A DNA stretch of 41,701 bases from Alphaproteobacteria bacterium (GCA_035625535.1 DASPPM010000037.1:1-41701), one strand, 5' to 3'. Shown: positions 7,947-34,529, counted from the stretch's first letter. Numbers and translations are program-made. The notes: a model not told the origin generated them from the sequence alone.

Positions 7947-7980
7947 GTACAAGTTTCAGGCGCTTAACCCAGGCGAATCC

Positions 7981-8589: not shown

Positions 8590-8884
8590 TTTTGCCCCAT
8601 TTGACATATTCTTCCCTGCGGCCGAGGCTCCGCCAAGCGCCCATTGGCATGCCGATTGTATGGAGTCCGGCCGCGGAGAGGGTCAGACCCCGCCGGGTCA
8701 AGGGATGCTGGCGGGAGGGATAGCGGGCTCGCATCCTGTATTGCAGAATGCGAGAGGGGCTGGGTACGCCTAGAGAGAGTTCCTGACTGTCCGCCCGGCC
8801 GGGGCCGGGAAGGCCGCAAAGACGCGCGAGCAGCCGCGGCGCGCCGAGCGCGATTTGAGGCGCGGCTTTTATACAGGTGTGTCG

Positions 8885-11158
8885 ATGTCGACGATTACCC
8901 GTCTTCCTGTGCCCAGCGGCGAGGAACCCGGCCCGGAGAGCGGCTTCGAGCTCGCAGCGCCCGCGGATACGGCGCTCGACCTGAGGCGCATCCTCTCCGT
9001 CCTCAAGCGCCGCAAGGTGATGATCCTCGGCGTGATGTTCGTCATCACCAGCCTTGCGGCACTGGTCGTCTCCCAACTGACCCCGCTCTACCGCGCCGAG
9101 GTCAAGCTGGTCGTGGAGGGCAACCGCCAGAACATCGCGCCGATTCAGGCGGTCGTGCAGGGCCTCAATCCGGACGTCATGACCAATGAGACCGAAGCGG
9201 CGATCCTCACCTCCCGCGAGCTCGCGGCCAAGGCCGTCGAGCGGCTCAACCTAGTGAACAACCCGCTCTACAACCCCGATCTCCTGCCCAAGAAGAAGGG
9301 GCTGTTGAGCACCATTTTCGATCCGATCAGGGGGGCGCTTTTTGGCGCCGCGGCCCCCTCTGCCGAGACGGCCGGTATCGCCCCGGATGAGAAGCGCCGC
9401 CAACTCGTGCAAGCGACGATCGACAAATTTCTGCACGCCCTCACCGTGACCGCGTCGGACCGCAGCCGGGTGCTCACGCTGCAGTTCGTCTCGCCGGACG
9501 CGCGCGTGGCCGCACTCGGTGCCAACACCACCGCCGAGGTCTACATCCTCGATCAACTTGCCGCCAAGGGCGAGACCACCTCGCGCGCCTCCGACTGGCT
9601 CAAGCAGCACGTCGAGGAGCTGCATGAGCGGGTCATCGAGTCCGAGCAGAAGCTCGAGGATTACCGCCGGCAGTCCGGGATCATCGACACGGGCGGCGAG
9701 ACGGTCTACCAGTCCCAGTTGGGACGCCTCAACGAGGAGCTGGTGCTCGCCCGCACCAAGCTCGCCGAGTCCGAGGCGCGCGCCCAGCAGATCCAGGACC
9801 TGGTGAAGAGCGGCAATCTCGACACGGCCGCGGCGGTGCTCGACAGCAAGATCATCCAGAGCCTGACCGATCAAGAGGCTCAGGTGTCGCGCAAGCTCGC
9901 CGAGCTCAAGACCCAGCTCAAGGACACCCATCCCGAGGTGAAGCTGACCGAGCATGAGCTCGCGGACATCAAGGGCAAGATCTCGAGCGAGGTGCAGAAG
10001 ATCGCGGCCAATCTCAACAACGAGCTCGCCATAGCGCGCGTGCGCGCCGCCAACCTCGGCGGGCAGGTGGCCGATTTGCAGCGCAAGGTGGGGCAGCAGA
10101 ACGAAGCCGAGGTCACCCTCCGCTCGCTCGAGAGCGAAGTGAAGGCGAACAAGACGATCTACGAGACGCTGAATGCCCGTCTCAAGGAGACCAATATCCA
10201 ACAGGACGCGTCCATGCAGCAGCCGGATGCGCGCATCATCTCGCGCGCGACCGTGCCGAGCGCCCCCTTTTATCCGCGGCGCGACCTGATGATCCTGGCG
10301 GCGCTCGTCGTCTCCGCGGCCTTGGGTATGGCGTTGGCGCTGGTCGTCGAGTATCTCGACTCGGGCTTCCGCAGCCTCTCGCAAGTCGAGAGCCTTACCG
10401 GCATGCCGACCTTGGCGCTGGTGCCGAAGCTCAAAGACGTGGCGGGCGAGAACGCTCGGGCGCACCAGATCGCGGTAGAGCGCCCGAACTCGAGCTACGG
10501 TGAGGCGATCCGGACAATTCGAACCGGGCTCCTCCTGAGCCACCTCGATCACCCGCCGCGCACGGTCATGGTCTCCTCGTCGGTGCCGGGCGAGGGCAAG
10601 TCGTCGGTCGCGCTCTCGCTTGCCTGTGCCGCCGCGCGCTCGACGCAGAAGGCGATCATAATCGATTGCGATCTGCGGCATTCCAGTCTGCACAACTATC
10701 TGGGGTGTCCGAACAAGATCGGGCTCACCGACTACCTTGCCGGCCAGGCGAGCCTCGAGGACGTGGTGGAGATCGACCCGCACTCGGGCGTGCACTTCAT
10801 CACGGCTGGCTCGCGTGCGCCCAACCCGGTCGATCTCCTCGGCTCCCAGGAGATGAAGAAGCTGCTCACGCGGCTTTCCTCGCTTTACGATCTCGTGGTG
10901 ATCGATTCGCCGCCGCTGCTGCCGGTGTCGGACGCGATGGTGCTCGCGCGCGCCGTGGACAAGACGATCTTCCTCATTCGGTGGGAGAAGACCAAGCGGG
11001 AGACCGCGCTCTCCGGGCTCAAGCTCCTGATCGAGGCCGGCGCCAACGTCGCGGGCATCGCGCTCACCCAGGTGGACGTGCGCAAGCACGCGAGCTACGA
11101 CTATTCCGACTCCGGCTACTACTATTCGAGCAGCTACAAGAACTATTACATAGAATAG
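8885..11158 (+). CDS. Polysaccharide co-polymerase / tyrosine autokinase (GumC/ExoP/Wzc family)
   Basis: Has a Wzz-like N-terminus with a TM helix (VMILGVMFVITSLAALVV), a long coiled-coil, and a second TM helix. The P-loop kinase has Walker A VPGEGKSSVALSLA, A' IIIDCDLRHSSL and B DLVVIDSPPLLPVSD. The Tyr-rich tail YDYSDSGYYYSSSYKNYYIE has 8 Tyr in the last 20 aa. The start could be 8855 (track) or the ATG at 8885. Confidence 0.9.
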   Translation: MSTITRLPVPSGEEPGPESGFELAAPADTALDLRRILSVLKRRKVMILGVMFVITSLAALVVSQLTPLYRAEVKLVVEGNRQNIAPIQAVVQGLNPDVMTNETEAAILTSRELAAKAVERLNLVNNPLYNPDLLPKKKGLLSTIFDPIRGALFGAAAPSAETAGIAPDEKRRQLVQATIDKFLHALTVTASDRSRVLTLQFVSPDARVAALGANTTAEVYILDQLAAKGETTSRASDWLKQHVEELHERVIESEQKLEDYRRQSGIIDTGGETVYQSQLGRLNEELVLARTKLAESEARAQQIQDLVKSGNLDTAAAVLDSKIIQSLTDQEAQVSRKLAELKTQLKDTHPEVKLTEHELADIKGKISSEVQKIAANLNNELAIARVRAANLGGQVADLQRKVGQQNEAEVTLRSLESEVKANKTIYETLNARLKETNIQQDASMQQPDARIISRATVPSAPFYPRRDLMILAALVVSAALGMALALVVEYLDSGFRSLSQVESLTGMPTLALVPKLKDVAGENARAHQIAVERPNSSYGEAIRTIRTGLLLSHLDHPPRTVMVSSSVPGEGKSSVALSLACAAARSTQKAIIIDCDLRHSSLHNYLGCPNKIGLTDYLAGQASLEDVVEIDPHSGVHFITAGSRAPNPVDLLGSQEMKKLLTRLSSLYDLVVIDSPPLLPVSDAMVLARAVDKTIFLIRWEKTKRETALSGLKLLIEAGANVAGIALTQVDVRKHASYDYSDSGYYYSSSYKNYYIE

Positions 11159-11177
11159 CCCGGCCCCGAGGGCGCTT

Positions 11178-11876
11178 GTGCCGCAACGAATGCACCTGGT
11201 ATCGACCGCGCTCACGCTCGCCGGCGGGGCGCTGCTCATAGCGCTCTCGCTCCCGCAGCTCATCGGGGGGCTCGATTTCCTCTCGCAAGAGCGCACGCTC
11301 GACAATATCGCGGGGGGCAACTACACAAGACGGCTTTCGCCCGCGGAGATCAGCTATGCGGTCGCGCGATGGGGCGAAGCCGCTCCGCTCATCGAGGACG
11401 GCGATACCTGGGCCGGCTACGGCGACGTGTTGCTCGCGGCAGCCGCCGCCACGAGGAACGACCAGGAGAAGCGCCGCCAGCTCGTCGAGGCCGCGGTCGA
11501 TGCCTACCGCAAGGCGCTGACGCTCGGCCCGGCCGATGCGCGCGCCTGGACCATGCTGGCCTTCGCTCGCTTCGCCTACGGCGCGTCACCAGCGGAGCTC
11601 TTCCCGCTCCTCTACATGTCGCTGCGCACGGGGCCGCGCGAGCCAGGCCTCTCCTTCCCGCGCCTTGACATCGCGCTTTTTTATTGGCAGCTGCTCAATC
11701 CGATACTCAAGGTCGCCATGCAGGACCAGGCGCTGATCGCGGCCAACGACAATCCCCGCCGCCTCGCGGAGCTCGCCCACCGCCGCTATATGCTCGGGCC
11801 CGTTCGCGACATGCTCGATGTCAACCGTTACCTCAAGTGGCGCTTCGACGATATATACTCCCGCCTTTACCCGTGA
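11178..11876 (+). CDS. Membrane-anchored protein of unknown function (possibly TPR-like), with an EPS-cluster accessory role
   Basis: The start is GTG at 11178, or the ATG at 11190. There is one N-terminal TM helix (LVSTALTLAGGALLIALSLPQLI). The rest is helical and Ala/Leu-rich (AVDAYRKALTLGPADARAWTMLAFARF). It lies immediately downstream of the PCP gene. I recognise no family. Confidence 0.55.
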   Translation: MPQRMHLVSTALTLAGGALLIALSLPQLIGGLDFLSQERTLDNIAGGNYTRRLSPAEISYAVARWGEAAPLIEDGDTWAGYGDVLLAAAAATRNDQEKRRQLVEAAVDAYRKALTLGPADARAWTMLAFARFAYGASPAELFPLLYMSLRTGPREPGLSFPRLDIALFYWQLLNPILKVAMQDQALIAANDNPRRLAELAHRRYMLGPVRDMLDVNRYLKWRFDDIYSRLYP

Positions 11877-11901: not shown

Positions 11902-13416
11902 TCAGGAGCTCTTGTCCGCGCCGCTCGTCCCGCGCGTCCGGGGCGCATCGCCTGCGTGGGCGATTTGCCTGCGGCCGGGTCGGGTCAAAAGCGCAATGCG
12001 GCTCAAGAGCGACCCTCGCTCGGCGCTCCCGGCCTCTTGCTCTGCGCCCCGTCGCGTCGGGAAGGATTGGGCGTAGGCCGTACCCAGGAGAAGCGCGTAG
12101 GCCACCGCGATCGCCGGTATCTGCAAGCTGAAGTCGACCACGGAATGAAGCGCCATGAGTGCCGTGGCGCCAAGCCCCGCCGCGGGGTAGACGAAGTCGC
12201 GTTGGCGGGTGAGCAGCCCGCGCGCGCATACCGCCACGATGCCGATCAGGATGGCGAGCATAAGGCAAAACGCCGGCAAGCCGATCTCGAGGGCCAACTC
12301 GAGGTAGGTATTGTGCGCGCGGTCGAACGTGGCCACGAGAAAGTCGAGCCGATCGTCGCGGTACATCTGGAAAGTGTCGTGAAAGCCCCCGAGGCCGACG
12401 CCGAGAAGGGGGTGGTCGCCGATCGCGCGCAAGGTAAGCGCGTAGATGACTCCACGCCCGGTCTCGTTGCCGGCATAGTCGCTCACTCGGCCGATAAGAC
12501 CGCTGCCGCTGAAGCTCACCAGGATCACCGCTCCGATCACGAGCGAGAGGGCGAAGATCGGCAACCGGCCGGCCGCCCTCCGCTGGCGCCCGGCCAACCG
12601 CAGCGACAAGGCGAGAGCGATGGCGCCCACGAACGTCGCGCCGAAGCCGCCGCGAGACTGGGTGAAGAGCAGCGCCGTGGTGATGACGACCGTCGAGACG
12701 AGCAGCAGATAGGGGCCGAGTGTCGCCGTCTCGACGAAATGCAGCAAGCCGAAGCGGCTGAAGACTCCGTGGCGCAGGCTCTTGTCGGATAGGTGGCTGA
12801 GCAAGGCCAAGCTTGCGATGAGCGTCAGCCCGCAGTAGGCGGCGAAGCTGTTGCGATTGACGAAGGTAGAGGTTAGCGAGCCTGGATAGGCCCATTTCTC
12901 GTACCACAGCACCATGTCGAAGTGGCCGAGCTGCATGACGAGCCCGTAGACCGCGTAGATCGTCCCGGCGATGGTCAGCGACCATAACGCAATTTTCGCA
13001 TAGGCGCGCGCGCGGCAGAGCTGAATGGCGAGAAAGAAGACGCCGGCATAGGTGATGAGGCGCAGGATGGTCTCGCGCGCCGCCCCCGGATCGATGGCGA
13101 TGGAGCCCTTGAGCGGCGTGCCGAGCAAGCCGCTTGCCTCGCGCCAAAGCGGGTTGTGCCAGGAATCGGGCGTCATGGTGCTCTGCTGCACGAAAAACCA
13201 CACGACCAGCACGGCGAAGGCGACGAGAGCGGCGCCGTAGCGGCGCCATTCGAGCTGAATGAGACCCCTGTCGAAGAGGGCGGCGAGCGAAAAGGCGACA
13301 AGCTGGATGCCGACGCTGGCGCCAAGCACGCCCCAGGCCCATGGCCGATTGCTGGCAAGGGGCAGCGGCGCCAGCCCGACGGTGATCACGAGAGCCCAGA
13401 AGACTATGTTCGCCAT
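11902..13416 (-). CDS. O-antigen ligase / Wzy-like polymerase family membrane protein
   Basis: Starts at the internal ATG at 13416 of track ORF 11902..13701 (MANIVFWALVITVGLAPLPLASNRPWAWG...). It has more than 10 predicted TM segments and a Wzy_C-like core (LLFTQSRGGFGATFVGAIAL). A periplasmic loop carries RAHNTYLELALEIGLP. Confidence 0.75.
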   Translation of the reverse strand: MANIVFWALVITVGLAPLPLASNRPWAWGVLGASVGIQLVAFSLAALFDRGLIQLEWRRYGAALVAFAVLVVWFFVQQSTMTPDSWHNPLWREASGLLGTPLKGSIAIDPGAARETILRLITYAGVFFLAIQLCRARAYAKIALWSLTIAGTIYAVYGLVMQLGHFDMVLWYEKWAYPGSLTSTFVNRNSFAAYCGLTLIASLALLSHLSDKSLRHGVFSRFGLLHFVETATLGPYLLLVSTVVITTALLFTQSRGGFGATFVGAIALALSLRLAGRQRRAAGRLPIFALSLVIGAVILVSFSGSGLIGRVSDYAGNETGRGVIYALTLRAIGDHPLLGVGLGGFHDTFQMYRDDRLDFLVATFDRAHNTYLELALEIGLPAFCLMLAILIGIVAVCARGLLTRQRDFVYPAAGLGATALMALHSVVDFSLQIPAIAVAYALLLGTAYAQSFPTRRGAEQEAGSAERGSLLSRIALLTRPGRRQIAHAGDAPRTRGTSGADKSS

Positions 13417-13448: not shown

Positions 13449-13871
13449 CTACTTGAACAGCTGGCTCAGTTGCTCCATGAGCTGCGCTAAGAAGGAGCCC
13501 GAGCCTGCGCCGCCCATGCTGAACGCCGCTTGCAGCAGATAGAGCGATAGCAGAATCGGGATTCCCACCACCAGGCAAAAAATGACGGTAATGAACGCAT
13601 TCCCCAGGCTCGCGAACGGGTGGCGATCGCGCTCCCGGGCGCGGCGCTCGGGGGGGCGCTGCTCCCGGCCGGCCAGAAAGACGAGGTAGAAGCGACGCCA
13701 AAGCAAGGGAAACGACCAGCGGATATCGATCGTATGCGAGCCCCAGGTGCGGGCGCCGAAGGCCAGCTTGATCGCGGCGAGCTGGGCCGGCGTGAAGCTT
13801 TGGGCGACCGAGGGGTGGATACGGCTGAAGAACTTCTCGAGGAAGGGATCGCTCGGCTCATCCTTGACCAT
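13449..13871 (-). CDS. Small membrane protein of unknown function
   Basis: 140 aa with coding-like GC3. The N-terminal part is soluble (MVKDEPSDPFLEKFFSRIHPSVAQSFTPAQLAAIKLAF...). It has hydrophobic helices (FPLLWRRFYLVFLA; AFITVIFCLVVGIPILLSLYLLQAAF). It sits between the priming transferase and the Wzy-like gene on the same strand. Confidence 0.6.
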   Translation of the reverse strand: MVKDEPSDPFLEKFFSRIHPSVAQSFTPAQLAAIKLAFGARTWGSHTIDIRWSFPLLWRRFYLVFLAGREQRPPERRARERDRHPFASLGNAFITVIFCLVVGIPILLSLYLLQAAFSMGGAGSGSFLAQLMEQLSQLFK

Positions 13872-13936: not shown

Positions 13937-15337
13937 TCAGTAGGCATTCTCGTGCACGAAGCCCACGAAGAGGGTGAGAAAGAGAATCTTGAGGTCGAGG
14001 AAGAGCGACCAATGATCGATGTAATAGAGATCGCATTGCACGCGCAGCTGCATCTTGCGCAGGCTGTCCGTCTCGCCCCTGAGCCCGTTGACCTGCGCCC
14101 AGCCGGTGATGCCGGGCTTGACGCGGTGGCGGCCGATGTAGTCGTCGATGGTCTTGGCGAACTGCTCGTTGTGCTGGACCGCGTGGGGACGCGGGCCGAC
14201 GAGGGACATGTCGCCCTTGAGCACGTTGAAGAGCTGAGGCAGCTCGTCGAGGCTCGTGCGCCGCAAGAGCGCGCCTAGGCGCGTGATGCGCGGATCGTTG
14301 CGCGTCGCCTGCCGCAAGTCGCTCTCGCGCGCCGCCTCTGCCACCATGGTGCGGAATTTGTAGACGGTGAATTCGTTGTTGTTGAAGCCGTAGCGCTTCT
14401 GCCCGAAGAGCACGGGTCCCGGGCTGTCGAGCTTGATCGCGAACGCAATCAGCGCCATCAGCGGCAGCACGAGGATCAGAATGATGCTGGCGATGATCCT
14501 GTCCTCGAGGGACTTGAGCACCAGGTTCCAGCCGTGGAGCGGCCGCTCGAATACCCCCAGCATGGGGACGCCGCCGAGCGTCATGAAGCCGTGCGTCGGT
14601 ATGTCGAAGCCGGCGGCCTCCGGGCACAAGCGCACATTTGCCGGCAGCGTCTTGAGCTCCTTGAGGAGCGCGGTGATGCGCTCGCTTTCCTGCCAGGAAA
14701 GCGTGATCACCACTTCGTCGACCGGATCTTGGCGGAAGCGCGCGAGAAGGTCGGCGATGGTTCCATTTACCCTCACCTCTTCGTCGCCGGCATGCGATTT
14801 CGGCGGGCGGTCGTCATAGACCCCGACGAACTCGTATTGCTCGTCCCGGCGGGCGAGCAGACGGCGGCGCAAGCGCGCGGCGAGCGGCGTGGCGCCCACG
14901 ATCGCGATCCTCACGTGCAGCAGGCCGCGCCGGCGCCATCTCGCGAGTTGCCAGTAGACGGCGAAGTGCGCAAACACCATGGCGAGAAACGCCGTCACCG
15001 CCCAAAGCGCCAGCCAGACGCGCGAGAACTCGTCCGAGCTCTTTGTGAAGTAGGCGAGCACGACAAGGGTCAGCACCACGCCGACCCAGCAGGCGAGAAG
15101 CTGGCCGATTTGGAAGCCGAGCTGTTGTAGGTTCGCAAGCGTATAGACCTTGCCGACGTGCATGACGTTGAGGGTGAGGATGCCGCCTGCAAGAATGGCG
15201 ATGATGTAATAGCCGGGCAAATCCCACGTGTCGTGGCGCAGCCAGTAGCAGATCGCCCCTGTAAGGATGACGAGCGCCACGTCCGCTGCGCGCAACGCCC
15301 CCATCAGGAACGTCGGCGCGTCCGATGCCATCGCCAT
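13937..15337 (-). CDS. Undecaprenyl-phosphate hexose-1-phosphate transferase (WcaJ/ExoY-type priming glycosyltransferase)
   Basis: Has N-terminal TM helices, a central domain, and a C-terminal bacterial sugar transferase domain (PGPVLFGQKRYGFNNNEFTVYKFRTM...DELPQLFNVLKGDMSLVGPRPH...KPGITGWAQVNG). The track start at 15352 is TTG; ATGs occur at 15337 and 15331. Confidence 0.9.
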   Translation of the reverse strand: MAMASDAPTFLMGALRAADVALVILTGAICYWLRHDTWDLPGYYIIAILAGGILTLNVMHVGKVYTLANLQQLGFQIGQLLACWVGVVLTLVVLAYFTKSSDEFSRVWLALWAVTAFLAMVFAHFAVYWQLARWRRRGLLHVRIAIVGATPLAARLRRRLLARRDEQYEFVGVYDDRPPKSHAGDEEVRVNGTIADLLARFRQDPVDEVVITLSWQESERITALLKELKTLPANVRLCPEAAGFDIPTHGFMTLGGVPMLGVFERPLHGWNLVLKSLEDRIIASIILILVLPLMALIAFAIKLDSPGPVLFGQKRYGFNNNEFTVYKFRTMVAEAARESDLRQATRNDPRITRLGALLRRTSLDELPQLFNVLKGDMSLVGPRPHAVQHNEQFAKTIDDYIGRHRVKPGITGWAQVNGLRGETDSLRKMQLRVQCDLYYIDHWSLFLDLKILFLTLFVGFVHENAY

Positions 15338-15493
15338 TCCGCGCGCGCTCAAGCCGTCTCTCCTTGAGGAGTGCGATCGCCACGGGCCGGGGCTCCGCGC
15401 GCCCGCTGCCGCGGGCGCCCGCGAGCTTGCGTCCGGGCGCTGCCCCGGCCGGCGGCAAGTGTCGAAAAGAGTAGCATTAACAAGACCAAAGCA

Positions 15494-16174
15494 CTAGCCG
15501 CGATGGATCCACAAATGCTGCTCGTTGATCGAATAGGTGGGGCGGTAGTGCACGATGCTCTTGGCGTTCACGACCTGGTTCTTGATCTGGTTGTCGAGCA
15601 CAAGCGCCTGGCCGTCTATGTAGACGACAAGAATGGCGTGATCGACCCTGAGGTTGAGATCCTTGAGCACGACGATGCGCAGCTCGTCAAGAGTCCAGCC
15701 GAGAAAGCGCAGCGACCAGTATTTCGCGACGGCATAATCCCGGCACATGCCCCGCTTGTGAAGGAACTCAAGCGGGGTCTCCCAGATGAGGTCCTGGAGA
15801 TAGGGGACGTTGTTCATGAAGTCGTTGACCTGCTTGAGCTGGCTCATCTTGTCGAGGGTCTTGATGCTCGAGAGGAAGGGTGTCCAACGCTTGAGCTCGC
15901 ACAAGTTGAGCGGGGGGTTCTCGCAGACATTGGCGAATGGCTCCGGGGTCTCGTTCATCCGCTCGATCACCCCACCCCATTGCGGCAGCATGGTGCGCAA
16001 GTTGGCACTGTCCATGCGGGTCTCGGTCGAGCCGAAAAGCTGGGGATAATCGACGGCGCGGGCGGCTTCAGGCAGGACTACCGCGAGCACGAGAGCGACC
16101 GCGAGGCTATATGCTGCAATGCAGCATAGACTTCTCCTTGCCGTCGTTCCGTGCGCCGCCTGGATGCCCAGCAT
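15494..16174 (-). CDS. Secreted transglutaminase-like cysteine protease, BTLCP / LapG family (copy 1)
   Basis: Starts at the internal ATG at 16174 (MLGIQAAHGTTARRSLCCIAAYSLAVALVLAVVLPEAARA/VD). The catalytic pattern is GMCRDYAVAKYWSL (Cys) ... DHAILVV (His) ... LVLDN (Asp). About 60% of residues align identically with copy 2, judged by eye. Confidence 0.85.
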   Translation of the reverse strand: MLGIQAAHGTTARRSLCCIAAYSLAVALVLAVVLPEAARAVDYPQLFGSTETRMDSANLRTMLPQWGGVIERMNETPEPFANVCENPPLNLCELKRWTPFLSSIKTLDKMSQLKQVNDFMNNVPYLQDLIWETPLEFLHKRGMCRDYAVAKYWSLRFLGWTLDELRIVVLKDLNLRVDHAILVVYIDGQALVLDNQIKNQVVNAKSIVHYRPTYSINEQHLWIHRG

Positions 16175-16463
16175 GACCCTAGCTTGCTCCCCTGTGGGGG
16201 TGGCGGAGCCCTTTGGCGCGCGCGGAGCGGCCCGCCCGTGCCGCCCTGCCAGGATGCCTTGGCTCCAGCTACGGACCATGCCCGTCCCCCCGCAGCAGGG
16301 TCAAGCGAGCAAAATCCGCGCCACGGCGCCCCTCTTCCTCGGCTGCGTCAGGTGCCCGGCGGCGGCCCCCAAGAGGCGCCCTCGGGCCCCGCGGGCGCCG
16401 CCCATCCATAAGCGGCGAAAATAAAAAGATGATAACGAAATGACGCGGCGCCGCCAGCCCGGC

Positions 16464-17162
16464 CTATCCTCGCCGAAAGAGCCAAAAGGCGTGCTCGGTG
16501 ACCGCGTATACGGGGCGATAGTCGACGATGCTTTTCGCATCCACGAGGTAGCCTTTGTGCAGATTGTCGAGCACGAGACTCTGACCGTTGATGTGGACCA
16601 CCAGAACGGCGTGGCTGGTCGGCCTCCCCGTTTGGCCGTCGGGCATGTCGAGGATGTCCAAGACCACGATGCGCAGGCGGTCCGACGGCCAGCCGAGGTA
16701 GCGCAGCGACCAGTACTTGGCGACCGCGTAATCCCTGCACATGCCGAATCTGCGGAGGAATTCGAGCGGCGTCTCCCAGACGGTGTCCACCAGATATGGA
16801 ACATTGTTCATGAAGTCGTTTATTTGCTTGAGCTGCGTCATCTCGTCGAGACCCTTGAGGCTGGAGAGGAACGGGGTCCATTTCTGCAGCGCGCAGAAGC
16901 TCAAGCGGGGGTCCTCGCAGCGGCTATCGAACGGCTCGGGGGTCTGGTTCATGCGGTCGATGACGGCGGCCCATTGAGGCAGCAGCTGATGCAAGTTGAC
17001 CGCGTTCATTTGCACGCCGATGCTGCCGAAGAGGCTTTCGCCTTCCAAGGCCTCAGCCGGCCCCGATAATGCGAGGAGGAGCGCGAGTGCGGCGGCTAAG
17101 GCTGCCGTACGCCGCCTCGAGCAGAGACCGCCCGCCGTGAGCCACGCGGCGATCATCGACAT
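16464..17162 (-). CDS. Secreted transglutaminase-like cysteine protease, BTLCP / LapG family (copy 2)
   Basis: MSMIAAWLTAGGLCSRRRTAALAAALALLLALSGPAEA/LE is the signal peptide. The catalytic pattern is GMCRDYAVAKYWSL ... SHAVLVV ... LVLDN. The loop just before the catalytic His is 7 residues longer (DILDMPDGQTGRPTS versus KDLNLRVD in copy 1). The track start at 17171 is GTG; ATGs occur at 17162 and 17156. Confidence 0.85.
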   Translation of the reverse strand: MSMIAAWLTAGGLCSRRRTAALAAALALLLALSGPAEALEGESLFGSIGVQMNAVNLHQLLPQWAAVIDRMNQTPEPFDSRCEDPRLSFCALQKWTPFLSSLKGLDEMTQLKQINDFMNNVPYLVDTVWETPLEFLRRFGMCRDYAVAKYWSLRYLGWPSDRLRIVVLDILDMPDGQTGRPTSHAVLVVHINGQSLVLDNLHKGYLVDAKSIVDYRPVYAVTEHAFWLFRRG

Positions 17163-17310
17163 TCCACGCACTACCTCGCGGCCGAGGGCGATTCCCGCGG
17201 CCCGAAACTTGTGTTAAACCTGGGCCACCTTTCTGCCGAACGTTTCTCTGCCGGCCGGTGCCGACCCGATCATATTCTCCAACGACCCAGGCCGCACATG
17301 GCTGGGGCAT

Positions 17311-19452
17311 GTGGAGACAGCCTCCGAGGCCCCTATGTCCGATTTACTGAATTCCGAGCCGAAAGGAAAGCGTTGGCGTGTCAGTAGCGGCGTCGTTCTC
17401 ACCGCGGCGGGGATCTTGCTTGTTGCCGCCCTTGGGGTCTGGCAGGTCTTTCGCTTCGTCGACGACTTGCGGGAGCGCGATCTGCGCACTTGGCAGGACC
17501 GGCTCGGCCTGGTCGCCGACAGCCGTAAGGACGCCGTGGAGGCCTGGCTCGCCCAGCAATGGCAGGATTTGGGCGATGTCGCCGAGAGCGATTCCGTGCG
17601 GCTTTTCTTGACCCAGCTCAAGCTTGCCGGCGGCGATATAAGCAAGGTGCAGGACGGCGAGGCCCAGGCCGAATATCTCCAGAACATGCTCATCGTGAGG
17701 GCCGACGGCGCCGGCTTCAAGGCCCCCGTGCTCGGTCCCGAGGTCCCCGCCGACGTGCAGCGCATCGGGCTTGCGGGAATGGCCGTTCTCGGTCTCGACG
17801 GCAAGACGCTGGTGACGACCCACAGCATGCCGGCGCCTGATCTGGCCACAGGCGAGTTCGTCGCTTCGGCGGCCAAGGCGCGGCGCGCGCTCCGCGATAT
17901 CTTCCTCGATCCCGCCAAGCAGACCGCCATGGGCTTCCTCGTGCCCATCTATGCCATCCAGGCGGAAGCGTCGGCGGACCAGCAGGTGGGTTGGGTCCTC
18001 GGCATCAAGGAGGTCGGCAGCGAGCTCTATCCCAAGCTGAAGCAGCCGGGCGATATCGAGACGGCCGAGGCCGTGCTCGTGCGCCAGGAGGGTGCGGTCA
18101 TCCGCTATCTCTCCCCCCTCCAGGGCAACAGGCCTTTGCTGTCGTTCGCGCTCGCGACCAATACGCCTGATCTTGACGCCGCCGCCGCCATCGCCGCACC
18201 CGGCGGCTTCGAAATCAAGCGCGATTACCGCAATACGCCCGTGCTGTTCATCAGCCGGAAGATCGAGGGCACGCCGTGGCTGCTGATCTACAAGGTGGAC
18301 CGTGCCACGGCGCTCGGCGCCAGCGATCGGCGCGCGCGGGATTTGCTTGCGGTCTTCCTGCTCGCGATCCTTCTGCTCACCGCCGGCATCATCGCCATCT
18401 GGCGCCACGGTGCCTCCCAGCGCGCCTCGGAGGCCGCTCGGCGATATCGCGCGCTCGCCCAGCGCTTCGAGCATCAAGGCAATTTCCTGCGCCTCGTCAC
18501 CGACAGTCAGCCCAACTCGATCTTCATCGCCGACGAGCAATCGCGCTACCGCTTCGCCAATCGCCGGTCGGCGGACGAGGCGGGCATTCCGGCCACCGAC
18601 ATGATCGGCAAAACGCTCGCCTCCGTGCTCGGACCCGACGCCGCCAAGCGCCTCGAGCGGCTCAACCGCAGCGCGCTCGAAGATGAGAAGATGGTCTCGG
18701 CCGTTCACCGCCTGGGCGCGGGGCGCACGCTCCGCGTGCTGCAAAGCGAGCATATTCCGCTCACCACCATGCTCGACATCGTGCCGCGCGGCGTGCTCGT
18801 CGTGGAGCAGGACGTGACGGTCGCGGTGAGCGAGCGCGAGCGGCGCGAGCGTACGCTTGCCAAGCTGGTGAAGAGCCTGGTCAGCCTGGTCGACCGGCGC
18901 GACCGCTACGCCGCGGATCACTCCTCGCGCGTCGCCACCGTGGCGCACGCAATCGCGGGCGAGATGGGCCTCGACCCTACGTTGGTCGAGACCGCGGAAA
19001 CCGCCGGCAATCTCATGAACCTCGGCAAGATCTTGGTGCCGGCCGACGTCCTCACCAAGGATGGCCGCCTGAGCGAGGAGGAGATCGAGCGCGTGCGCGA
19101 CAGCCTCGATGCTACGGCCGACTTCCTCGAGGGCATCGAGTTCGACGGCCCGGTGGTCGAGACCCTGCGCCAATGCCGCGAGAATTGGGACGGCTCGGGC
19201 CGGCCGCGCGGCCTCGTGGGCGAGGCCATCGTGCCGACCGCGCGCGTGGTCGCCGTGGCCAACGCCTTCGTCGCCATGGTGAGCCCGCGGCTCAAGCGCC
19301 CCGGCCTCGACATGAACGCGGTCGCCGAGTCGCTCGTGCGCGGCATGGGCACGCGCTTCGATCGGGGGGTGGTGGCGGCCCTCATCAACTACCTCGACAA
19401 CAAGGGGGGCCGCAGCGCCTGGGCCGAGTTCTCGAACATGCCGCGGCCATAG
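17311..19452 (+). CDS. Membrane sensor: TM, periplasmic Cache-like domain, TM, PAS, and a catalytically degenerate HD-GYP-like domain
   Basis: TM1 is VVLTAAGILLVAALGVW. The ~300-aa periplasmic region ends in a Cache-like stretch, DYRNTPVLFISRKIEGTPWLLIYKV. TM2 is LLAVFLLAILLLTAGIIAIW. The PAS-like region is FLRLVTDSQPNSIFIADEQSRYRFANRRSADEAGIPATDMIGKTL. The HD-GYP-like region is DRYAADHSSRV...LMNLGK...CRENWDGSGRPRGL...AVANAFVAM. The start is GTG at 17311, or the ATG at 17335. Confidence 0.8.
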   Translation: METASEAPMSDLLNSEPKGKRWRVSSGVVLTAAGILLVAALGVWQVFRFVDDLRERDLRTWQDRLGLVADSRKDAVEAWLAQQWQDLGDVAESDSVRLFLTQLKLAGGDISKVQDGEAQAEYLQNMLIVRADGAGFKAPVLGPEVPADVQRIGLAGMAVLGLDGKTLVTTHSMPAPDLATGEFVASAAKARRALRDIFLDPAKQTAMGFLVPIYAIQAEASADQQVGWVLGIKEVGSELYPKLKQPGDIETAEAVLVRQEGAVIRYLSPLQGNRPLLSFALATNTPDLDAAAAIAAPGGFEIKRDYRNTPVLFISRKIEGTPWLLIYKVDRATALGASDRRARDLLAVFLLAILLLTAGIIAIWRHGASQRASEAARRYRALAQRFEHQGNFLRLVTDSQPNSIFIADEQSRYRFANRRSADEAGIPATDMIGKTLASVLGPDAAKRLERLNRSALEDEKMVSAVHRLGAGRTLRVLQSEHIPLTTMLDIVPRGVLVVEQDVTVAVSERERRERTLAKLVKSLVSLVDRRDRYAADHSSRVATVAHAIAGEMGLDPTLVETAETAGNLMNLGKILVPADVLTKDGRLSEEEIERVRDSLDATADFLEGIEFDGPVVETLRQCRENWDGSGRPRGLVGEAIVPTARVVAVANAFVAMVSPRLKRPGLDMNAVAESLVRGMGTRFDRGVVAALINYLDNKGGRSAWAEFSNMPRP

Positions 19453-19611: not shown

Positions 19612-20379
19612 ATGCTCAAGCACCTGTTCACGTCGCGTCCGCAGCCGATCGAGAGGGCATTCAGCGTTCCTCGGGGCACGCGCGTCTACGCGATCGGCGA
19701 TATCCACGGCCGCGCCGACCTCCTCGAGACGCTTCACCGCAAGGTCAGAGAGGACGCGCGCCAAGCTGCCGTCGAGCGAAGATGCGTCGTCTATCTCGGC
19801 GACTATGTCGACCGCGGCCTGCAGTCGCGCGAGGTGATCGACCTCCTCCTCGACGCGCCGCTCGAGGGCTTCGAGAGCGTGCACCTCATGGGGAACCACG
19901 AGGAATTCATGCTCCGCTTCCTCGAGGAGCCGAAGGCGGGGCCGGGCTGGTTCATGAACGGCGGCGGGGCGACGCTCTACAGCTACGGCGTGCGCATGCT
20001 GGAGCGCGGGACGGACCTCACGCGCATGAGCCATCTGTGCGAGCAGCTTGGCCGCAATCTGCCGGAGCGGCACCTCGCGTTCCTGCGCGGGCTCAAGCGC
20101 TGGCATATCGAAGGCGATTATTATTTCGTCCATGCCGGCATCCGCCCGGGCGTCCCCCTCGAGCAGCAGCGCGACGAGGACACGCTGTGGATTCGCGAGC
20201 CCTTTCTCGACGACGCGAGCGATCACGGCAAGATGGTGGTGCACGGCCACACGATCATGGCCGAGCCCCAGGTGCGCCCCAACCGCATCGGCATCGATAC
20301 CGGCGCCTATGCCACGGGCGTGCTCACTTGCCTCGTGCTGGAGGGAAGCACGCGGCGCTTCCTGCAGACGAGCGCCTGA
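19612..20379 (+). CDS. PPP-family metallophosphoesterase (serine/threonine protein phosphatase 1 / PrpA-like)
   Basis: The motifs GDIHGR, GDYVDRG, GNHE, FVHAG and VVHGHT occur in the canonical order. The protein is 255 aa. Confidence 0.85.
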   Translation: MLKHLFTSRPQPIERAFSVPRGTRVYAIGDIHGRADLLETLHRKVREDARQAAVERRCVVYLGDYVDRGLQSREVIDLLLDAPLEGFESVHLMGNHEEFMLRFLEEPKAGPGWFMNGGGATLYSYGVRMLERGTDLTRMSHLCEQLGRNLPERHLAFLRGLKRWHIEGDYYFVHAGIRPGVPLEQQRDEDTLWIREPFLDDASDHGKMVVHGHTIMAEPQVRPNRIGIDTGAYATGVLTCLVLEGSTRRFLQTSA

Positions 20380-21871: not shown

Positions 21872-22083
21872 ATGAACAACCGGAATGTATCAATGGCTGC
21901 CACGGCTGATCCTCTTGCCGCCCAGGGACAGGTATTTCAAACGCTAACGCGCGCCGCATGGACCACCATCACTTCCTTTGCGGCGCAGTAGTCTCGCTAG
22001 GCCCCAAAACCTGTGAGTAAGCCGCGCGGTCGGGTCGTTCCCTTCCGCTGTCAACGTCGCGAGATACCTGACTGGGCTGCCCC

Positions 22084-22338
22084 TCACTGGCGAGCGTTCC
22101 AATTCCCCATTAAGAGGCGCTCCGTCATTTGGCGCTCGATATCGTCGGTCAAGCGCCCGCCCGATCGAGCGAGAAGGCGGGTGGCGTCTCGGTCGACCTG
22201 CTTCTGACGCGGCTCAAAAAAAATGGCGTCAAAAATGCGCCGGAGGACGCCGACCTTGCTCGTGACGCCATTGCTCCTGGCGACAGCCTTGTCGCCGAAG
22301 CAAGGAGCGAAATCCCTGTGATGTGCTGCATTAGCCAT
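22084..22338 (-). CDS. Small hypothetical protein (84 aa)
   Basis: Open frame with coding-like composition. The C-terminal motif SGGRLTDDIERQMTERLL resembles small conserved alphaproteobacterial proteins as I recall them, but I cannot name a family. Confidence 0.4.
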   Translation of the reverse strand: MANAAHHRDFAPCFGDKAVARSNGVTSKVGVLRRIFDAIFFEPRQKQVDRDATRLLARSGGRLTDDIERQMTERLLMGNWNARQ

Positions 22339-22470
22339 GTCCCCATCTCCGCCGTGTTCCGAACCCCGGCAATCCAGCGTTCCTAACCCGTCGTATTCGT
22401 CGTATGTATATCCGCCCTGGAATTGCAGCTGACAAAGGATGATTTCTCAGCCTATACATGAGTATTTCTC

Positions 22471-22869
22471 ATGCAGGAACCAGGACCACGGGCGAATGCC
22501 CTACGCGTGTTCGAGGCCGCCGCGCGGCATCTGAGCCTGACCAAGGCAGCGCAAGAGGTGCACGTGGCGGCGGGCGCACTGAGCCACCAGATCCGCGGGC
22601 TTGAAGAGCTGCTCGGTGTCAAGCTGTTCGAACAGCGCGTGCGATCGATCGAGCTTACGCGCGCCGGGAAGGAGCTTTATCCCGGCCTGGAGTCGGGCTG
22701 CGGCCATATCCGTGACGCCGTGGCAGGTCTGAGCAACGCGAGTCACGAACGCGTACTCGTGATCAACAGGCCGCCCGGCTTTACCTCAAAGTGGCTGCCG
22801 CCGCAGCTTTGCCGCTTCGCACGCGCTTACCCCGAGATCGATGCTCGGTTTTCCTCGGCGCGTGAATGA
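22471..22869 (+). pseudogene. LysR-family (GcvA-like) regulator, truncated after ~130 codons
   Basis: The HTH is intact (LRVFEAAARHLSLTKAAQEVHVAAGALSHQIRGLEELLGVKLFEQR). Only the first strand of the effector domain remains (VLVINRPPGFTSKWLPPQLCRFARAYPEIDARF) before a stop. Full-length LysR proteins are about 300 aa. Confidence 0.7.
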
Positions 22870-22909
22870 ATGATAGTCAGCACGCGATCACAGCGTTCGA
22901 CGCGGACCG

Positions 22910-23110
22910 TCATGGGAATCTCCCTCCGCGAACACGATAACGACATAGGTCGGCGAACCTCTCCCCTTCCTCCCTGATCGAGCGAACCATTTCTTTTTCT
23001 TCGGAACGCACAGCGGAGGGGATTCGGATCAACCAGTACGAATCCGACACGACAGGTCCCGACTGCGGCAGGCGCCCATGGGCTCGCGCGAGACCAACCG
23101 GTTCCAGACG
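22910..23110 (-). pseudogene. Remnant of the 3' end of a LysR-family gene
   Basis: Minus-strand translation from 23071 gives LPQSGPVVSDSYWLIRIPSAVRSEEKEMVRSIREEGERF...* This aligns with the C-terminus of the intact LysR at 24916..25821 (MPQPGPVTSNAYWLIRASSAPRSEVEEVIRWIKEEAEKV). There is no upstream body: it abuts the stop of the HCCA isomerase gene. Confidence 0.6.
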
Positions 23111-23116
23111 ACCTCC

Positions 23117-23746
23117 TCACACCTTCTGTTCCGACGCAAAGAGCAGAGCGTCGTCCAAGCGATCGTTGCCCCAGAACATCTCCCTCCCGACGAAGAAGGT
23201 AGGGGCGCCGAATATTCCTTTGCCACGCGCCTCTTCCGTTTGCTCTCGCAAGCGGGCTTTCGCGGGCTCGGCCTGGGCCTGTTCCAAAATGTCCGGGGCT
23301 GGGAGACCCAGCTCGGTCAAAATCGGAGCCAAGCGGTCGGGTTGGTTGATGTCCTCGTCCAGCACGAAGTTGAGTTCCATCACCCGACGGGAGAAGGCTC
23401 CGATCCACGGCTGTTCGACCCCCAGCAGCGCTACTCGCAAGGGCAGCACGCCCAGTCGTGGAAATGTGCTTGGCTTTGCCCATCGCAGCCCATACTTGCG
23501 ACACTGACGAACCATGTCCTGCCACACATAGGCACCCTTCTCCTTTTGCAGCACGAAGGGAGAGTTTTCCATGCCCAAGGCCCGGAAGATCGGTCCCAAA
23601 AAAAACGGTTTCCAAACGATGCGGACGCGGTGTCGTCGCGCCTCGTCCTCAATCCGCATGACGCTCAGGTAACTGTAGTTGCTGCCGAATTCGAACCAGA
23701 ACTCGATTTCCGGCGACGCTTCGGAGGTCACTGTTGAACGCGTCAT
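23117..23746 (-). CDS. 2-hydroxychromene-2-carboxylate isomerase family protein (DsbA-like thioredoxin fold)
   Basis: The N-terminal IEFWFEFGSNYSYLS and C-terminal GIFGAPTFFVGREMFWGNDRLDDAL patterns are typical of the HCCA isomerase / DsbA-like family. The protein is 209 aa. Confidence 0.8.
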   Translation of the reverse strand: MTRSTVTSEASPEIEFWFEFGSNYSYLSVMRIEDEARRHRVRIVWKPFFLGPIFRALGMENSPFVLQKEKGAYVWQDMVRQCRKYGLRWAKPSTFPRLGVLPLRVALLGVEQPWIGAFSRRVMELNFVLDEDINQPDRLAPILTELGLPAPDILEQAQAEPAKARLREQTEEARGKGIFGAPTFFVGREMFWGNDRLDDALLFASEQKV

Positions 23747-23802
23747 TGCGGCTTACTCCGACGTACAGAGAGAGAGCGACGAGGTACTGCAGGCGAAGCC
23801 GA

Positions 23803-24726
23803 TCAGCCGTAAGTCACGAGGCAGCGGACCTCGATGCTCTCCCTGAGGGGTGCATGAGGTGGAATCTCAGGGAGATCGAAGGCTGAGTGCGGCGTGAAGC
23901 GGGCCACGCCGTTCACTTGAGAATCATATTGTTTGAAGACCAAGGCCTCGTGGCTGTCCATCTCGGAGAAATAGAACCACTGGTGGCGCGGAGAGTGCTG
24001 CACGAGGTATCTCTCGCCGGTGCGGTGGGGATAGAGAAGATCGCCCGCAACGAGATCCCTCGCCGAGACCGTTCGCGCATCGCACACCGCAAGCGGGGTA
24101 TCCATGACCTGCCCTCGGATGGAACGCCAGATGTTGACGATGGCGAAGCGTTGCACCTTCGAGCCAACGTGATGATCCAAATCCACGACCTCGAAACGCT
24201 TCTGTCCGGAGGCTTCGCTGTAGTCGGTGTGCACGTGCCCCACCGCACCAGGGCGGCTACCGTCACCCTTGCGTCCGAAACCCAGTGGGGGACGCCCCAT
24301 CTCTCGCCGTCGAATGGTGTGATCGAAAATGTACGCATGTCCGGCACCCGTAACACATTTCGCCAGCTCGGCCGCTTCCGCGTAATAGCGGCTTCGGATG
24401 GCGTCCTCGTCCTCTAAGTCGATCATCGAGGTGGGGGCATTCCACAACTCAAATCCTTCCACGTGAATGGTGGGAGCTGAGGCCATGGCCCGGGCGTCTG
24501 CGATCCGTGCCGGCCTCACCCGATATTCGCAGTTGTGCCAAGCCCGTCCGGCCGGCGGTTCGTACATATAGTTGTAGGGGCGCTCCTTCGTCGGGGAGAG
24601 GTAACCAAGTCCAGCTGTCACGCAGGGTACTCTCGGTATTGCGGGTGAGAAGTTGCAGATGGCAAGACCCGTCCCGTGCCCGGAATGACGAATATTCTGT
24701 GGCGAAAGCAACATTAGGGTTTGCAT
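23803..24726 (-). CDS. CmcJ/NvfI-family (AsaB-like) putative oxygenase
   Basis: The family-typical N-terminal segment YLSPTKERPYNYMYEPPAGRAWHNCEYRVRPARIADAR...VEGFEL is present. The core is HVHTDYS...FAIVNIWRSI...DTPLAVCDARTV. The start is the ATG at 24726, or the GTG at 24621; the track ORF start at 24912 is probably too far upstream. Confidence 0.65.
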   Translation of the reverse strand: MQTLMLLSPQNIRHSGHGTGLAICNFSPAIPRVPCVTAGLGYLSPTKERPYNYMYEPPAGRAWHNCEYRVRPARIADARAMASAPTIHVEGFELWNAPTSMIDLEDEDAIRSRYYAEAAELAKCVTGAGHAYIFDHTIRRREMGRPPLGFGRKGDGSRPGAVGHVHTDYSEASGQKRFEVVDLDHHVGSKVQRFAIVNIWRSIRGQVMDTPLAVCDARTVSARDLVAGDLLYPHRTGERYLVQHSPRHQWFYFSEMDSHEALVFKQYDSQVNGVARFTPHSAFDLPEIPPHAPLRESIEVRCLVTYG

Positions 24727-24915
24727 GGCCCCTCCGGTTCGCCACCGCAAGAATCGTCTTTGCCTGCGACGGTGGCGATGAGCGACGCCATCATCAAAGG
24801 CGATCTCAAACGTCGGCGCAAACGAGGAAAACTTCCCATTTGCATGCATCAGGGGAATGTGAAAAATCCGCGTGCCGGTCGAGGAATGAGGCACGACGGC
24901 GAAGATCGCCAAATT

Positions 24916-25821: not shown

Positions 25822-26155
25822 TGACAGTCCGGCTGCCCGTGGCCTCATGTTGCCTCCTCTCTCCGCAGGATACGCGCGACGCGCCCGCCTGCTCGGCGTT
25901 TTCGGCGGAGCATCAGCAGCGCCGCGCGAGCCCGCGCGACAACGCCGAAAATCGCAGGCTGAGCGGGACAAAGGCGATCATGCGATAGCCGCCCTGCGGT
26001 GCTCGATCGCGCGGATCACCGCGATCATATCGGTGCCCCCGAGATCCGGAGCAGGGATCCAACCGCTAAGGGCGCAGCAATGCGGGAACTGTAGCAATGG
26101 GCCTGGCATTCGAATATCATATAGTTATGAAATGTCACTTCAAGGAATCAGAACG

Positions 26156-34314: not shown

Positions 34315-34529
34315 GGGGGTCTCAGCCGCATGCCGAGCGCAAGGTGCCAAAGATCATGCGTTCGCCTGTCCTTATCGCGATCATGGTGAGGACTGCCGGT
34401 AAAATATAGAGGTCGGCTGCGACGGGCAACGCTCGCTCGCCCTCTCCGGAGGCGGCGGCGATGCTTGTCGCGGCAAGGGGCCGCCTCTATCGTGAGCGCC
34501 GCGGCAAAAGCGACGGCCTCGGAGAGCCG

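Follow-up and report, generated by a model that had tools for sequence, protein, structure and literature searches.

Two protease genes and a divergent receptor gene in a polysaccharide locus

A 41,701-nt stretch of DNA from an Alphaproteobacteria bacterium (GCA_035625535.1 DASPPM010000037.1:1-41701), hereafter the window, carries at positions 15494-19452 two genes for exported-type proteases of the BTLCP family and, divergent from them, a gene for a membrane receptor with a degenerate HD-GYP domain, which together may form a switch on the assembly of capsule or exopolysaccharide (EPS). Genes were mapped from an open reading frame (ORF) listing, a codon-position GC filter and Pfam and NCBIfam scans of this high-GC sequence (0.60-0.73). 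The genes and domains that carry the argument are the following.

13937-15352, minus strand: WcaJ-type undecaprenyl-phosphate glucose phosphotransferase, the priming transferase of the EPS/capsule pathway (TIGR03023)
15494-16174 (longest ORF to 16279), minus strand: BTLCP1 (Pfam PF06035)
16464-17162 (longest ORF from GTG 17171), minus strand: BTLCP2 (Pfam PF06035)
17335-19452 (alternative GTG start 17311), plus strand: DvhD-type receptor, 705 aa (Pfam, PDB, homologs)
17464-18360, plus strand: periplasmic dCache domain of the receptor (AlphaFold2 model and Foldseek)
18502-18822, plus strand: cytoplasmic PAS domain of the receptor (PAS_4, E 1.5e-14; aligns with the DvhD PAS domain in 9RC0)
18877-19368, plus strand: degenerate HD-GYP domain of the receptor (HD_5, E 1.9e-29)
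19612-20379, plus strand: cytoplasmic calcineurin-like metallophosphoesterase (Pfam Metallophos, E 5.8e-13)

The order across the locus is Wza, Wzc and a 232-aa protein (u232) on the plus strand, then Wzy_C, a 140-aa protein (u140), the priming transferase, BTLCP1 and BTLCP2 on the minus strand, and finally the receptor and the metallophosphoesterase on the plus strand. Both BTLCP genes share the strand of the priming transferase and lie head-to-tail, BTLCP1 being 141 bp upstream of the transferase; the further gaps are 289 bp between BTLCP1 and BTLCP2, 139-172 bp between BTLCP2 and the receptor, and 159 bp between the receptor and the metallophosphoesterase. The priming transferase matched TIGR03023 at E 7.7e-157 (523 bits, cutoff 411), together with Pfam Bac_transf and CoA_binding_3.

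A sequence-only reading of this stretch had proposed two tandem minus-strand genes for signal-peptide BTLCPs with a Cys-His-Asp pattern, head-to-tail upstream of an EPS priming transferase, and about 150 bp away a divergent 713-aa protein with two transmembrane (TM) segments in the order TM-Cache-TM-PAS-dead-HD-GYP. These assignments are borne out by the map above and by the family matches and replaced catalytic motifs given below. The same reading held that the window contains no type I secretion system (T1SS) and no giant adhesin, and family scans found neither a T1SS component nor a giant adhesin within the 41.7 kb.

The receptor is a clear relative of DvhD

The receptor ORF spans 17311-19452 on the plus strand and encodes 713 aa from the GTG codon or 705 aa from the ATG at 17335; the ATG is the likelier start because every one of the more than 100 full-length homologs has a length of about 705 aa. 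The protein is arranged as TM1, a periplasmic dCache domain of about 300 aa, TM2, PAS and degenerate HD-GYP, with two hydrophobic segments flanking residues 44-342. When searched as a single sequence against all PDB sequences with phmmer, the PAS/HD-GYP region (residues 381-693) matched the Desulfovibrio vulgaris receptor DvhD (PDB IDs: 9RC0 and 9RBZ) at E 6e-46 with 35% identity, and a family profile of the receptor matched DvhD PAS/HD-GYP at E 3.4e-73, the next-best PDB matches being active HD-GYP enzymes at E 1.8e-15 at most.

The periplasmic domain was recognized by Pfam only as a weak dCache_1 match (22 bits, cutoff 45), and a search of this domain against the PDB, even with the family profile and at E up to 10, returned no match at all, the DvhD periplasmic structure (PDB ID: 9RC2) included. 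An AlphaFold2 (AF2) model of residues 52-350 of the 713-aa ORF (44-342 of the 705-aa protein), built with 101 homologs, had a pLDDT of 93.3, and its top Foldseek match was the 9RC2 dCache domain (E 6.8e-11), with template modeling scores of 0.65 (query-normalized) and 0.76 (target-normalized); the next dCache domain matched only at 3.5e-7, and the fold matches after 9RC2 were chemoreceptor and kinase sensor domains. The first helix of the model is broken into two segments, as described for DvhD. We regard the receptor as DvhD-type, a clear relative homologous to DvhD in every domain.

DvhD (DVU1020) and the adjacent BTLCP DvhG (DVU1019) were characterized in D. vulgaris Hildenborough (Karbelkar et al. 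PNAS 2024; Font et al. Nat Commun 2026). DvhD has the order TM-dCache-TM-PAS-HD-GYP, lacks metal ligands and does not hydrolyze cyclic di-GMP (c-di-GMP) (PNAS 2024, Nat Commun 2026); structures are available for its PAS/HD-GYP region and for the HD-GYP-c-di-GMP complex (9RC0/9RBZ) and for its periplasmic domain (9RC2) (Font et al. Nat Commun 2026). It binds c-di-GMP at canonical and dimer-bridging sites with a dissociation constant of ~0.1-0.3 uM, binds 3'3'-cGAMP more weakly, shifts conformation upon nucleotide binding and, in a reconstituted system, restrains DvhG, which releases the T1SS adhesins DvhA and DVU1545. The window receptor has in common with DvhD all domains, the broken first dCache helix, a metal-free HD-GYP domain, an adjacent BTLCP gene and several c-di-GMP contacts. 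It differs in coming from Alphaproteobacteria rather than Desulfovibrionales, in a cytoplasmic identity of only ~35% and a periplasmic likeness by fold alone, and in lacking the GYP tyrosine and the equivalent of DvhD Y652. Unlike those of the DvhDG locus, the window genes are divergent and adjoin a Wzy-type EPS locus and a metallophosphatase instead of a T1SS or adhesin, and the proteases, unlike DvhG, occur as two copies without the calcium site and begin with signal peptides in place of a TM anchor.

This homology (9RC0, 9RC2) strongly supports the earlier proposal of a LapD-like inside-out switch in which a dCache domain and a dead HD-GYP domain act on a BTLCP. The accompanying claim that the architecture was undescribed is wrong, because it is the DvhDG architecture, published since 2024 (PNAS 2024, Nat Commun 2026). 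In those supplementary files of the Font et al. study that were searched, there is no mention of Alphaproteobacteria, of names beginning with Rhodospirill or of the four alphaproteobacterial genera looked for. A protein database search with the DvhD fragment taken from the PDB alignment did not return DvhD itself; the best match had 59% identity and the matches were mostly fragments.

The HD-GYP catalytic motifs of the window receptor are replaced: LMNLGK stands for LHDIGK, CRENWDGSGRP for HHExxDGxGYP, and AVANAF lacks the last Asp. This degeneracy is uniform in 20 aligned homologs of 47-100% identity (LMNLGK, xQEHWDGxGxP, AVANAF), and the metal ligands are replaced in all 120 homologs examined, HD having become MN, HH having become CR and the last Asp having become Asn in the window (in DvhD, HD is SQ and HH is MN); N643 and G622/P624 are invariant or nearly so. 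With the HD, HH and Asp ligands all replaced, hydrolysis is not expected, and the possibility of an active HD-GYP phosphodiesterase was rejected on this family-wide loss of every metal ligand. Active HD-GYP proteins (PmGH, 4MCW/4MDZ; V-cGAP3, 5Z7C; RpfG) share the HD_5 fold with the receptor C-terminus, but their metal ligands are replaced in the receptor and the matches to them are 30 orders of magnitude weaker than that to DvhD. Among PLSDB plasmids, a search with the receptor found only an unrelated Acinetobacter HD-GYP protein.

The c-di-GMP contact residues of DvhD, taken from the published structure, were mapped onto the 120 homologs. R650 is kept in 120/120 and R653 in 117/120, K520 is Arg in 120/120, and P567 is kept in 91/120; at L577 the homologs have Leu or Met and at M646 Met, Leu or Ile, Y523 is matched by Tyr or Phe in 98/120, and the Y652 position holds an aromatic residue or His (Tyr, His, Phe or Trp) in 113/120. 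That R650, R653 and K520 (as Arg) vary little or not at all suggests that a nucleotide site has been kept. About 7 of 12 contacts are kept in the window protein: K520 (as R), Y523, P567, L577, M646, R650 and R653.

In the Lap system, LapG is sequestered by the periplasmic domain of LapD, an inner-membrane c-di-GMP receptor with degenerate GGDEF-EAL domains, and free LapG cleaves a T1SS-anchored adhesin. What the window would share with LapD/LapG (Pseudomonas fluorescens, Legionella pneumophila; 4U65, 4FGO) is the inside-out control of a periplasmic BTLCP by a degenerate c-di-GMP domain, as proposed here, whereas the receptor is without LapD_MoxY_N, HAMP, GGDEF and EAL domains, the proteases are without the calcium site, and the window is without a T1SS and a LapA-like adhesin. 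An identification of the receptor as LapD was rejected, the Pfam scan having shown no LapD_MoxY_N, HAMP, GGDEF or EAL domain and only weak dCache_1, PAS_4 and HD_5/HD.

The two proteases

BTLCP1 has a longest ORF of 261 aa (15494-16279, minus strand) and comprises 226 aa from the ATG at 16174, which is probably the start since NCBI calls a 93%-identical ortholog (P0122) at 226 aa. The BTLCP2 ORF runs over 16464-17171 (minus strand), and its likely start, the ATG at 17162, gives 232 aa. Both matched Peptidase_C93 (PF06035) above the gathering score (E 2.1e-11 for BTLCP1 and 1.2e-8 for BTLCP2) and are 59% identical to each other over 195 residues (BLASTP E 2e-88). Each has a signal-peptide-like N-terminal segment and the Cys-His-Asp pattern (GMCRDYAVAKYW / HA[IV]LVV / LVLDN), which aligns with the LapG triad; the Cys-to-His spacing is 35 in BTLCP1 and 42 in BTLCP2, which carries 7 inserted residues in that interval; the His-to-Asp spacing is 15 in both. 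In both signal peptides (16060-16174 and 17050-17162) RR or RRR stands ahead of the hydrophobic core, so that export by Tat instead of Sec is possible.

An AF2 model of BTLCP1 (pLDDT 79.6) superposes on LapG (4FGO/4U65), its top Foldseek matches, with E 1e-10 and a root mean square deviation of 2.1 A over 141 columns; the two share the BTLCP fold at ~30% identity, and in the alignment the His-Asp interval of LapG is two residues longer than that of BTLCP1. Orthology to LapG was rejected by the NCBIfam equivalog model, the scores of 73.1 bits (BTLCP1) and 64.3 bits (BTLCP2) being far below the cutoff of 320. Two BTLCP copies were seen only in the close relatives of the window and once elsewhere; the sequence-only reading had taken the pair of proteases for a feature of the system, which did not hold up, the duplication being specific to the window's clade. 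A terminator-like hairpin (16441-16456) and an AT-rich stretch follow the BTLCP2 stop, and a 289-bp spacer (16175-16463) lies ahead of BTLCP1, in a promoter and terminator scan that was at chance overall (5 terminator-like sites against 3.5 expected from shuffling); the two genes may be transcribed separately.

Conservation of the gene neighborhood

Two family-specific motifs, run against one genome per species, gave at least 521 confirmed loci, of which the best 80 were taken for neighborhood counts made by tblastn with the window proteins. Almost all of these 80 come from metagenome-assembled genomes of Alphaproteobacteria (Rhodospirillales-like, Stellaceae, Dongiaceae); the cultured carriers among them are Pacificispira spongiicola KN72 and Aestuariispira insulae CECT 8488, and Algihabitans albus has the module too. 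A divergent BTLCP gene is directly adjacent to the receptor gene in 55 of the 71 loci with at least 1 kb of upstream sequence, while 16 lack a BTLCP. The synteny is thus conserved beyond close relatives, as the sequence-only reading required: receptor identity across the BTLCP-linked loci is 41-96%, and the outer neighbors vary.

After BTLCP and receptor, the metallophosphatase is the best-conserved component of the module: 45 of the 74 loci with at least 1 kb of downstream sequence have it no more than 2.5 kb past the receptor. Where both flanks could be read (66 loci), BTLCP and phosphatase occur together in 37, BTLCP only in 16, phosphatase only in 2 and neither in 11. Outer neighbors were counted in the 44 loci that have a BTLCP and reach 4 kb or more upstream. 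A priming transferase stands beside the BTLCP in 16/44, spread over several branches of the receptor tree, and a degenerate EAL-like protein takes that place in 10/44, the two occurring together in 1/44.

The EAL-like protein (~420 aa) directly follows the BTLCP in ~10-14 loci (L016, L033, L048, L059, L064, L066, L067, L069, L074 and L081). Its C-terminal domain matched Pfam EAL at E 8.6e-10 and has lost the DDFGTG and EGVE motifs; this neighbor is a second hint that c-di-GMP is involved.

Parallels with the HvyA capsule locus

A link between a BTLCP and capsule, overlooked in the sequence-only reading, is already known and sets a precedent for the EPS target proposed here: HvyA (CCNA_00166) of Caulobacter crescentus is a periplasmic BTLCP that blocks capsulation and requires its Cys-His-Asp triad (Ardissone et al. 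eLife 2014). The Wzy-type capsule locus of Caulobacter comprises the lipoprotein CCNA_00162, the Wzc protein CCNA_00163, the priming transferase pssY, the BTLCP hvyA, CCNA_00167 and the Wza protein CCNA_00168; CCNA_00167 was described as a 'Wzb-like metallophosphatase' and is needed for capsulation, and HvyA is controlled by cell-cycle transcription, translation and instability, with no receptor needed (eLife 2014).

The window likewise has an exported-type BTLCP inside a Wzy-type capsule/EPS locus, by a priming transferase and a metallophosphatase. The two loci share a priming transferase, an O-antigen-ligase-like protein, Wzc, Wza, a BTLCP and a metallophosphatase, as well as the local order transferase-BTLCP-metallophosphatase, and the window metallophosphoesterase holds the position of CCNA_00167 next to hvyA. 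In the window, however, a DvhD-type gene sits between protease and metallophosphatase, whereas none is described there in Caulobacter. The triad spacing is 34/15 in HvyA (C192/H226/D241) and 35/15 in the family of BTLCP1, this comparison and that of the phosphatase with CCNA_00167 being made by triad spacing and locus description. HvyA is reported to keep the calcium-binding residues, and the window paralogs do not. Full-text literature searches found no paper that joins HvyA or any BTLCP to a DvhD/HD-GYP receptor in polysaccharide control.

A proposed inside-out switch

On these observations we tentatively favor a c-di-GMP inside-out switch that acts on capsule/EPS assembly, a reading that we hold at somewhat less than even confidence. 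It builds on the homology of every receptor domain to DvhD, the loss of catalytic residues, the BTLCP fold and triad and the conserved synteny. The steps of nucleotide binding, inside-out transmission and BTLCP docking or inhibition at the dCache domain are modeled on DvhD, and a protease target in the capsule/EPS assembly pathway is suggested by HvyA and by the gene context. The 705-aa membrane protein would be a DvhD-type pseudo-enzyme receptor whose dead HD-GYP domain binds a cyclic dinucleotide, most likely c-di-GMP, in the cytoplasm. The conformational change would travel through the PAS domain and the TM helices to the periplasmic dCache domain, a candidate docking surface, which would bind or inhibit the secreted BTLCP or BTLCPs encoded divergently alongside. 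In the window's clade, the protease would be linked not to a T1SS adhesin but, like HvyA of Caulobacter, to a Wzy-dependent capsule/EPS locus with a Wzb-like metallophosphatase. At high nucleotide the protease would be held and polysaccharide made; at low nucleotide the protease would be free and polysaccharide assembly blocked.

Broadened to the family, the proposal is somewhat less probable: the widespread alphaproteobacterial module of BTLCP, DvhD-type receptor and Wzb-like metallophosphatase (roughly 500 loci in species-representative genomes) would be a second-messenger-gated, post-translational on-off switch for capsule/EPS that merges HvyA-type restriction with DvhD/LapD-type signaling, with the window's clade having, in addition, calcium-independent duplicated proteases.

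The receptor class and the link between protease and capsule are each already in the literature. What appears to be new is their combination: a DvhD-type receptor, a BTLCP and a metallophosphatase, widespread in Alphaproteobacteria, frequently fused to Wzy-type EPS loci and distinct from a T1SS-linked clade, with duplicated proteases lacking the calcium site in this lineage. If the proposal is correct, regulated proteolysis would let c-di-GMP govern capsule/EPS assembly from within the periplasm, a route that differs from the known transcriptional, PilZ-type and glycosyltransferase-activating ones, and it would provide a biochemical handle on what HvyA-type BTLCPs act on. The DvhD class, studied in Desulfovibrio only, would extend to hundreds of soil and marine Alphaproteobacteria, and one receptor-protease pair would be wired to two surface outputs, adhesin and polysaccharide. 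The loss of the calcium site is a natural experiment on the calcium dependence of BTLCPs.

Alternative explanations

Several observations weigh against the proposed switch, and the first group concerns the chemistry of its parts. The calcium site is gone in both paralogs, which have M-C-R instead of D-C-E around the catalytic Cys, and a 7-residue deletion in both removes the calcium-binding loop (DLWHEVD in LapG; family consensus NWGVxDY); the AF2 model of BTLCP1 is least confident at residues 121-140, exactly at the lost site. A DvhG calcium-site mutant, D316A/E318A, is inactive, so that with D-C-E lost the paralogs could be inactive or work differently. On the receptor side, K582, R569, E668 and Y621 (the Tyr of GYP) are unconserved across the 120 homologs, and the window protein has lost R569, K582, Y621, Y652 and E668. 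The Y652 equivalent, a base-stacking clamp in DvhD, is residue 654 of the 705-aa protein (19294-19296) and is Lys in the window; in the window's clade (at least 74% identity) the position is Lys or Asn (PRLKRP), Asn being found in the closest relatives, and this change coincides with the clade of duplicated BTLCPs that lack the calcium site. With these contacts lost, nucleotide affinity in the clade may be low or the ligand may differ. Judged from the contact residues, binding of a cyclic dinucleotide is plausible for the family and uncertain for the window protein.

These losses, the Lys or Asn at the Y652 position and the duplication being restricted to this clade, could reflect decay or repurposing, the BTLCPs having lost calcium-dependent protease activity and the receptor high-affinity c-di-GMP binding, so that the proteins act as non-catalytic binders or in transglutaminase or other chemistry. 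We consider this very unlikely. Both paralogs retain the triad and most core residues, the GC content at third codon positions of the BTLCP genes is 0.81-0.82, typical of expressed genes here, and the ORFs are kept full-length in orthologs at 80-96% identity. Moreover, among 54 receptor-adjacent BTLCPs from other genomes the motif is D-C-E-D in 43, D-C-K-D in 4 and M-C-R-D in 7, all seven of the last belonging to the window and its close relatives, and a 74%-identity relative has E-C-K-D with the calcium loop still there. Read as a sequence series, DCEDY to DCKDY/ECKDY to MCRDY looks less like decay than like the metal giving way, step by step, to a basic side chain.

A second group concerns the target. 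The target of HvyA itself is unsolved (eLife 2014), and the parallel with that protein is one of locus layout and triad spacing. The EPS link is frequent without being universal: of the 44 BTLCP-positive loci with sufficient upstream sequence, 19 show no EPS genes and no EAL-like gene. In addition, related BTLCPs or receptors adjoin T1SS or RTX genes at L054, L076, L078, L086 and L088, which leaves room for an adhesin target elsewhere in this genome. The receptor and BTLCPs would then form a classical DvhDG/Lap adhesin switch governing a T1SS giant adhesin encoded elsewhere, with the EPS operon merely adjacent, and DvhD and DvhG, the sole characterized relatives, do act on T1SS adhesins.

How these contexts are distributed bears on that explanation. 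On a neighbor-joining receptor tree with context labels, the first class, the majority and including the window, has BTLCP and metallophosphatase, with priming-transferase or Wz genes on several branches. The second, a small clade (L054, L076, L078 and L088), has a BTLCP and a T1SS or RTX adhesin and never the metallophosphatase: L054, L078 and L088 encode an ATP-binding cassette (ABC) protein with a C39-like domain, an AprE/HlyD-type membrane fusion protein and an outer-membrane efflux protein, and L076 (5217-11681) encodes a Cadherin/Big_9/RTX protein of more than 2154 aa. The third is an orphan clade with neither BTLCP nor metallophosphatase. Separately, L086 and L087 (8001-8684) carry a BTLCP 45% identical to BTLCP1 beside a pair of ABC exporters and a protein of the AprE/HlyD type; no DvhD-like receptor lies within 8 kb of that BTLCP.

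The adhesin explanation, which this ABC/HlyD pair and the T1SS-flanked clade favor, we nevertheless judge unlikely for the window. No T1SS or adhesin was found in the 22-kb loci of the window's clade, nor in the window, and within the receptor tree T1SS/RTX linkage is confined to the one small clade lacking the metallophosphatase, whereas the window is of the metallophosphatase and priming-transferase type. Its BTLCP genes, close upstream of the priming transferase on the same strand, and a parts list that mirrors the hvyA capsule locus also argue for a polysaccharide target. The same receptor-protease pair thus appears to serve an adhesin system of Dvh/Lap type in some lineages and, in others, an output that goes together with a metallophosphatase and often with EPS genes.

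Protease and receptor could also be functionally separate, with HvyA-like BTLCPs controlled by expression only and the receptor working outside-in, its dCache domain sensing a periplasmic ligand and its dead HD-GYP domain signaling to the metallophosphatase (as a Wzb-like regulator of Wzc) or to a GGDEF protein. dCache domains are typically ligand sensors, in keeping with the fold matches after 9RC2; in the 45 of 74 loci the metallophosphatase gene immediately follows that of the receptor on one strand; and Caulobacter HvyA works without a receptor, through the timing of its synthesis. The 16 receptor loci without a BTLCP and the contacts lost in the window's clade fit this explanation as well. 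Against it, the divergent BTLCP-receptor pair persists in 55 of 71 loci despite changing outer neighbors, the homolog DvhD acts on its BTLCP in response to c-di-GMP, and three contacts (R650, R653 and K520 as Arg) are near-invariant across the family. We regard separate functions as decidedly improbable. A comparison of conservation between BTLCP-linked and orphan receptors located no docking surface, the differences being spread (8 periplasmic, 5 PAS and 5 HD-GYP); it is uninformative because they fall over all domains and the orphans form a single clade.

Other features of the window

The remaining genes of the polysaccharide locus are as follows.

6654-7946, plus strand: BBP2_2 outer-membrane barrel (Pfam)
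7933-8589, plus strand: Wza-like exporter (family scans)
11178-11876, plus strand: 232-aa protein (u232), function unassigned
11902-13416, minus strand: Wzy_C / O-antigen-ligase-like membrane protein (Pfam Wzy_C, E 1e-17)
13449-13871, minus strand: conserved 140-aa protein (u140) of the EPS operon, kept in L005, L007, L008, L009, L030 and L034

The plus-strand block at 6654-11876 matched TIGR01005 (E 2.8e-105) and TIGR01007 in NCBIfam, besides its Pfam matches, and the minus-strand EPS genes converge on this block of barrel, Wza, Wzc and u232. The longest ORF of the Wzy_C protein reaches 13701; its ortholog in a 96% relative (L002) is called at 504 aa. The 140-aa protein at 13449-13871 had no family match in Pfam or NCBIfam. 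A major facilitator superfamily (MFS) transporter gene comes after the metallophosphoesterase.

More glycosyltransferases, a carbamoyltransferase, a heptosyltransferase and HldE are encoded at 27-37 kb. The distal part of the polysaccharide cluster includes the carbamoyltransferase (32557-34350) and a 485-aa membrane protein (27091-28548) whose distant match to HpsL, a hormogonium polysaccharide protein, stayed below cutoff (E 1.4e-36). At ~22000-27000 the GC content drops to 0.60 (against 0.65-0.70) over genes for LysR-type regulators and for DSBA-like and YDMC-family proteins; this segment, possibly an insertion, interrupts the cluster. The window also encodes, at 2583-4516, an ActS/PrrB/RegB histidine kinase together with an ActR/PrrA/RegA response regulator as a complete pair (NCBIfam equivalogs above cutoff), and since an ActS-family kinase recurs near the module at other loci, it is part of a conserved chromosomal backbone.

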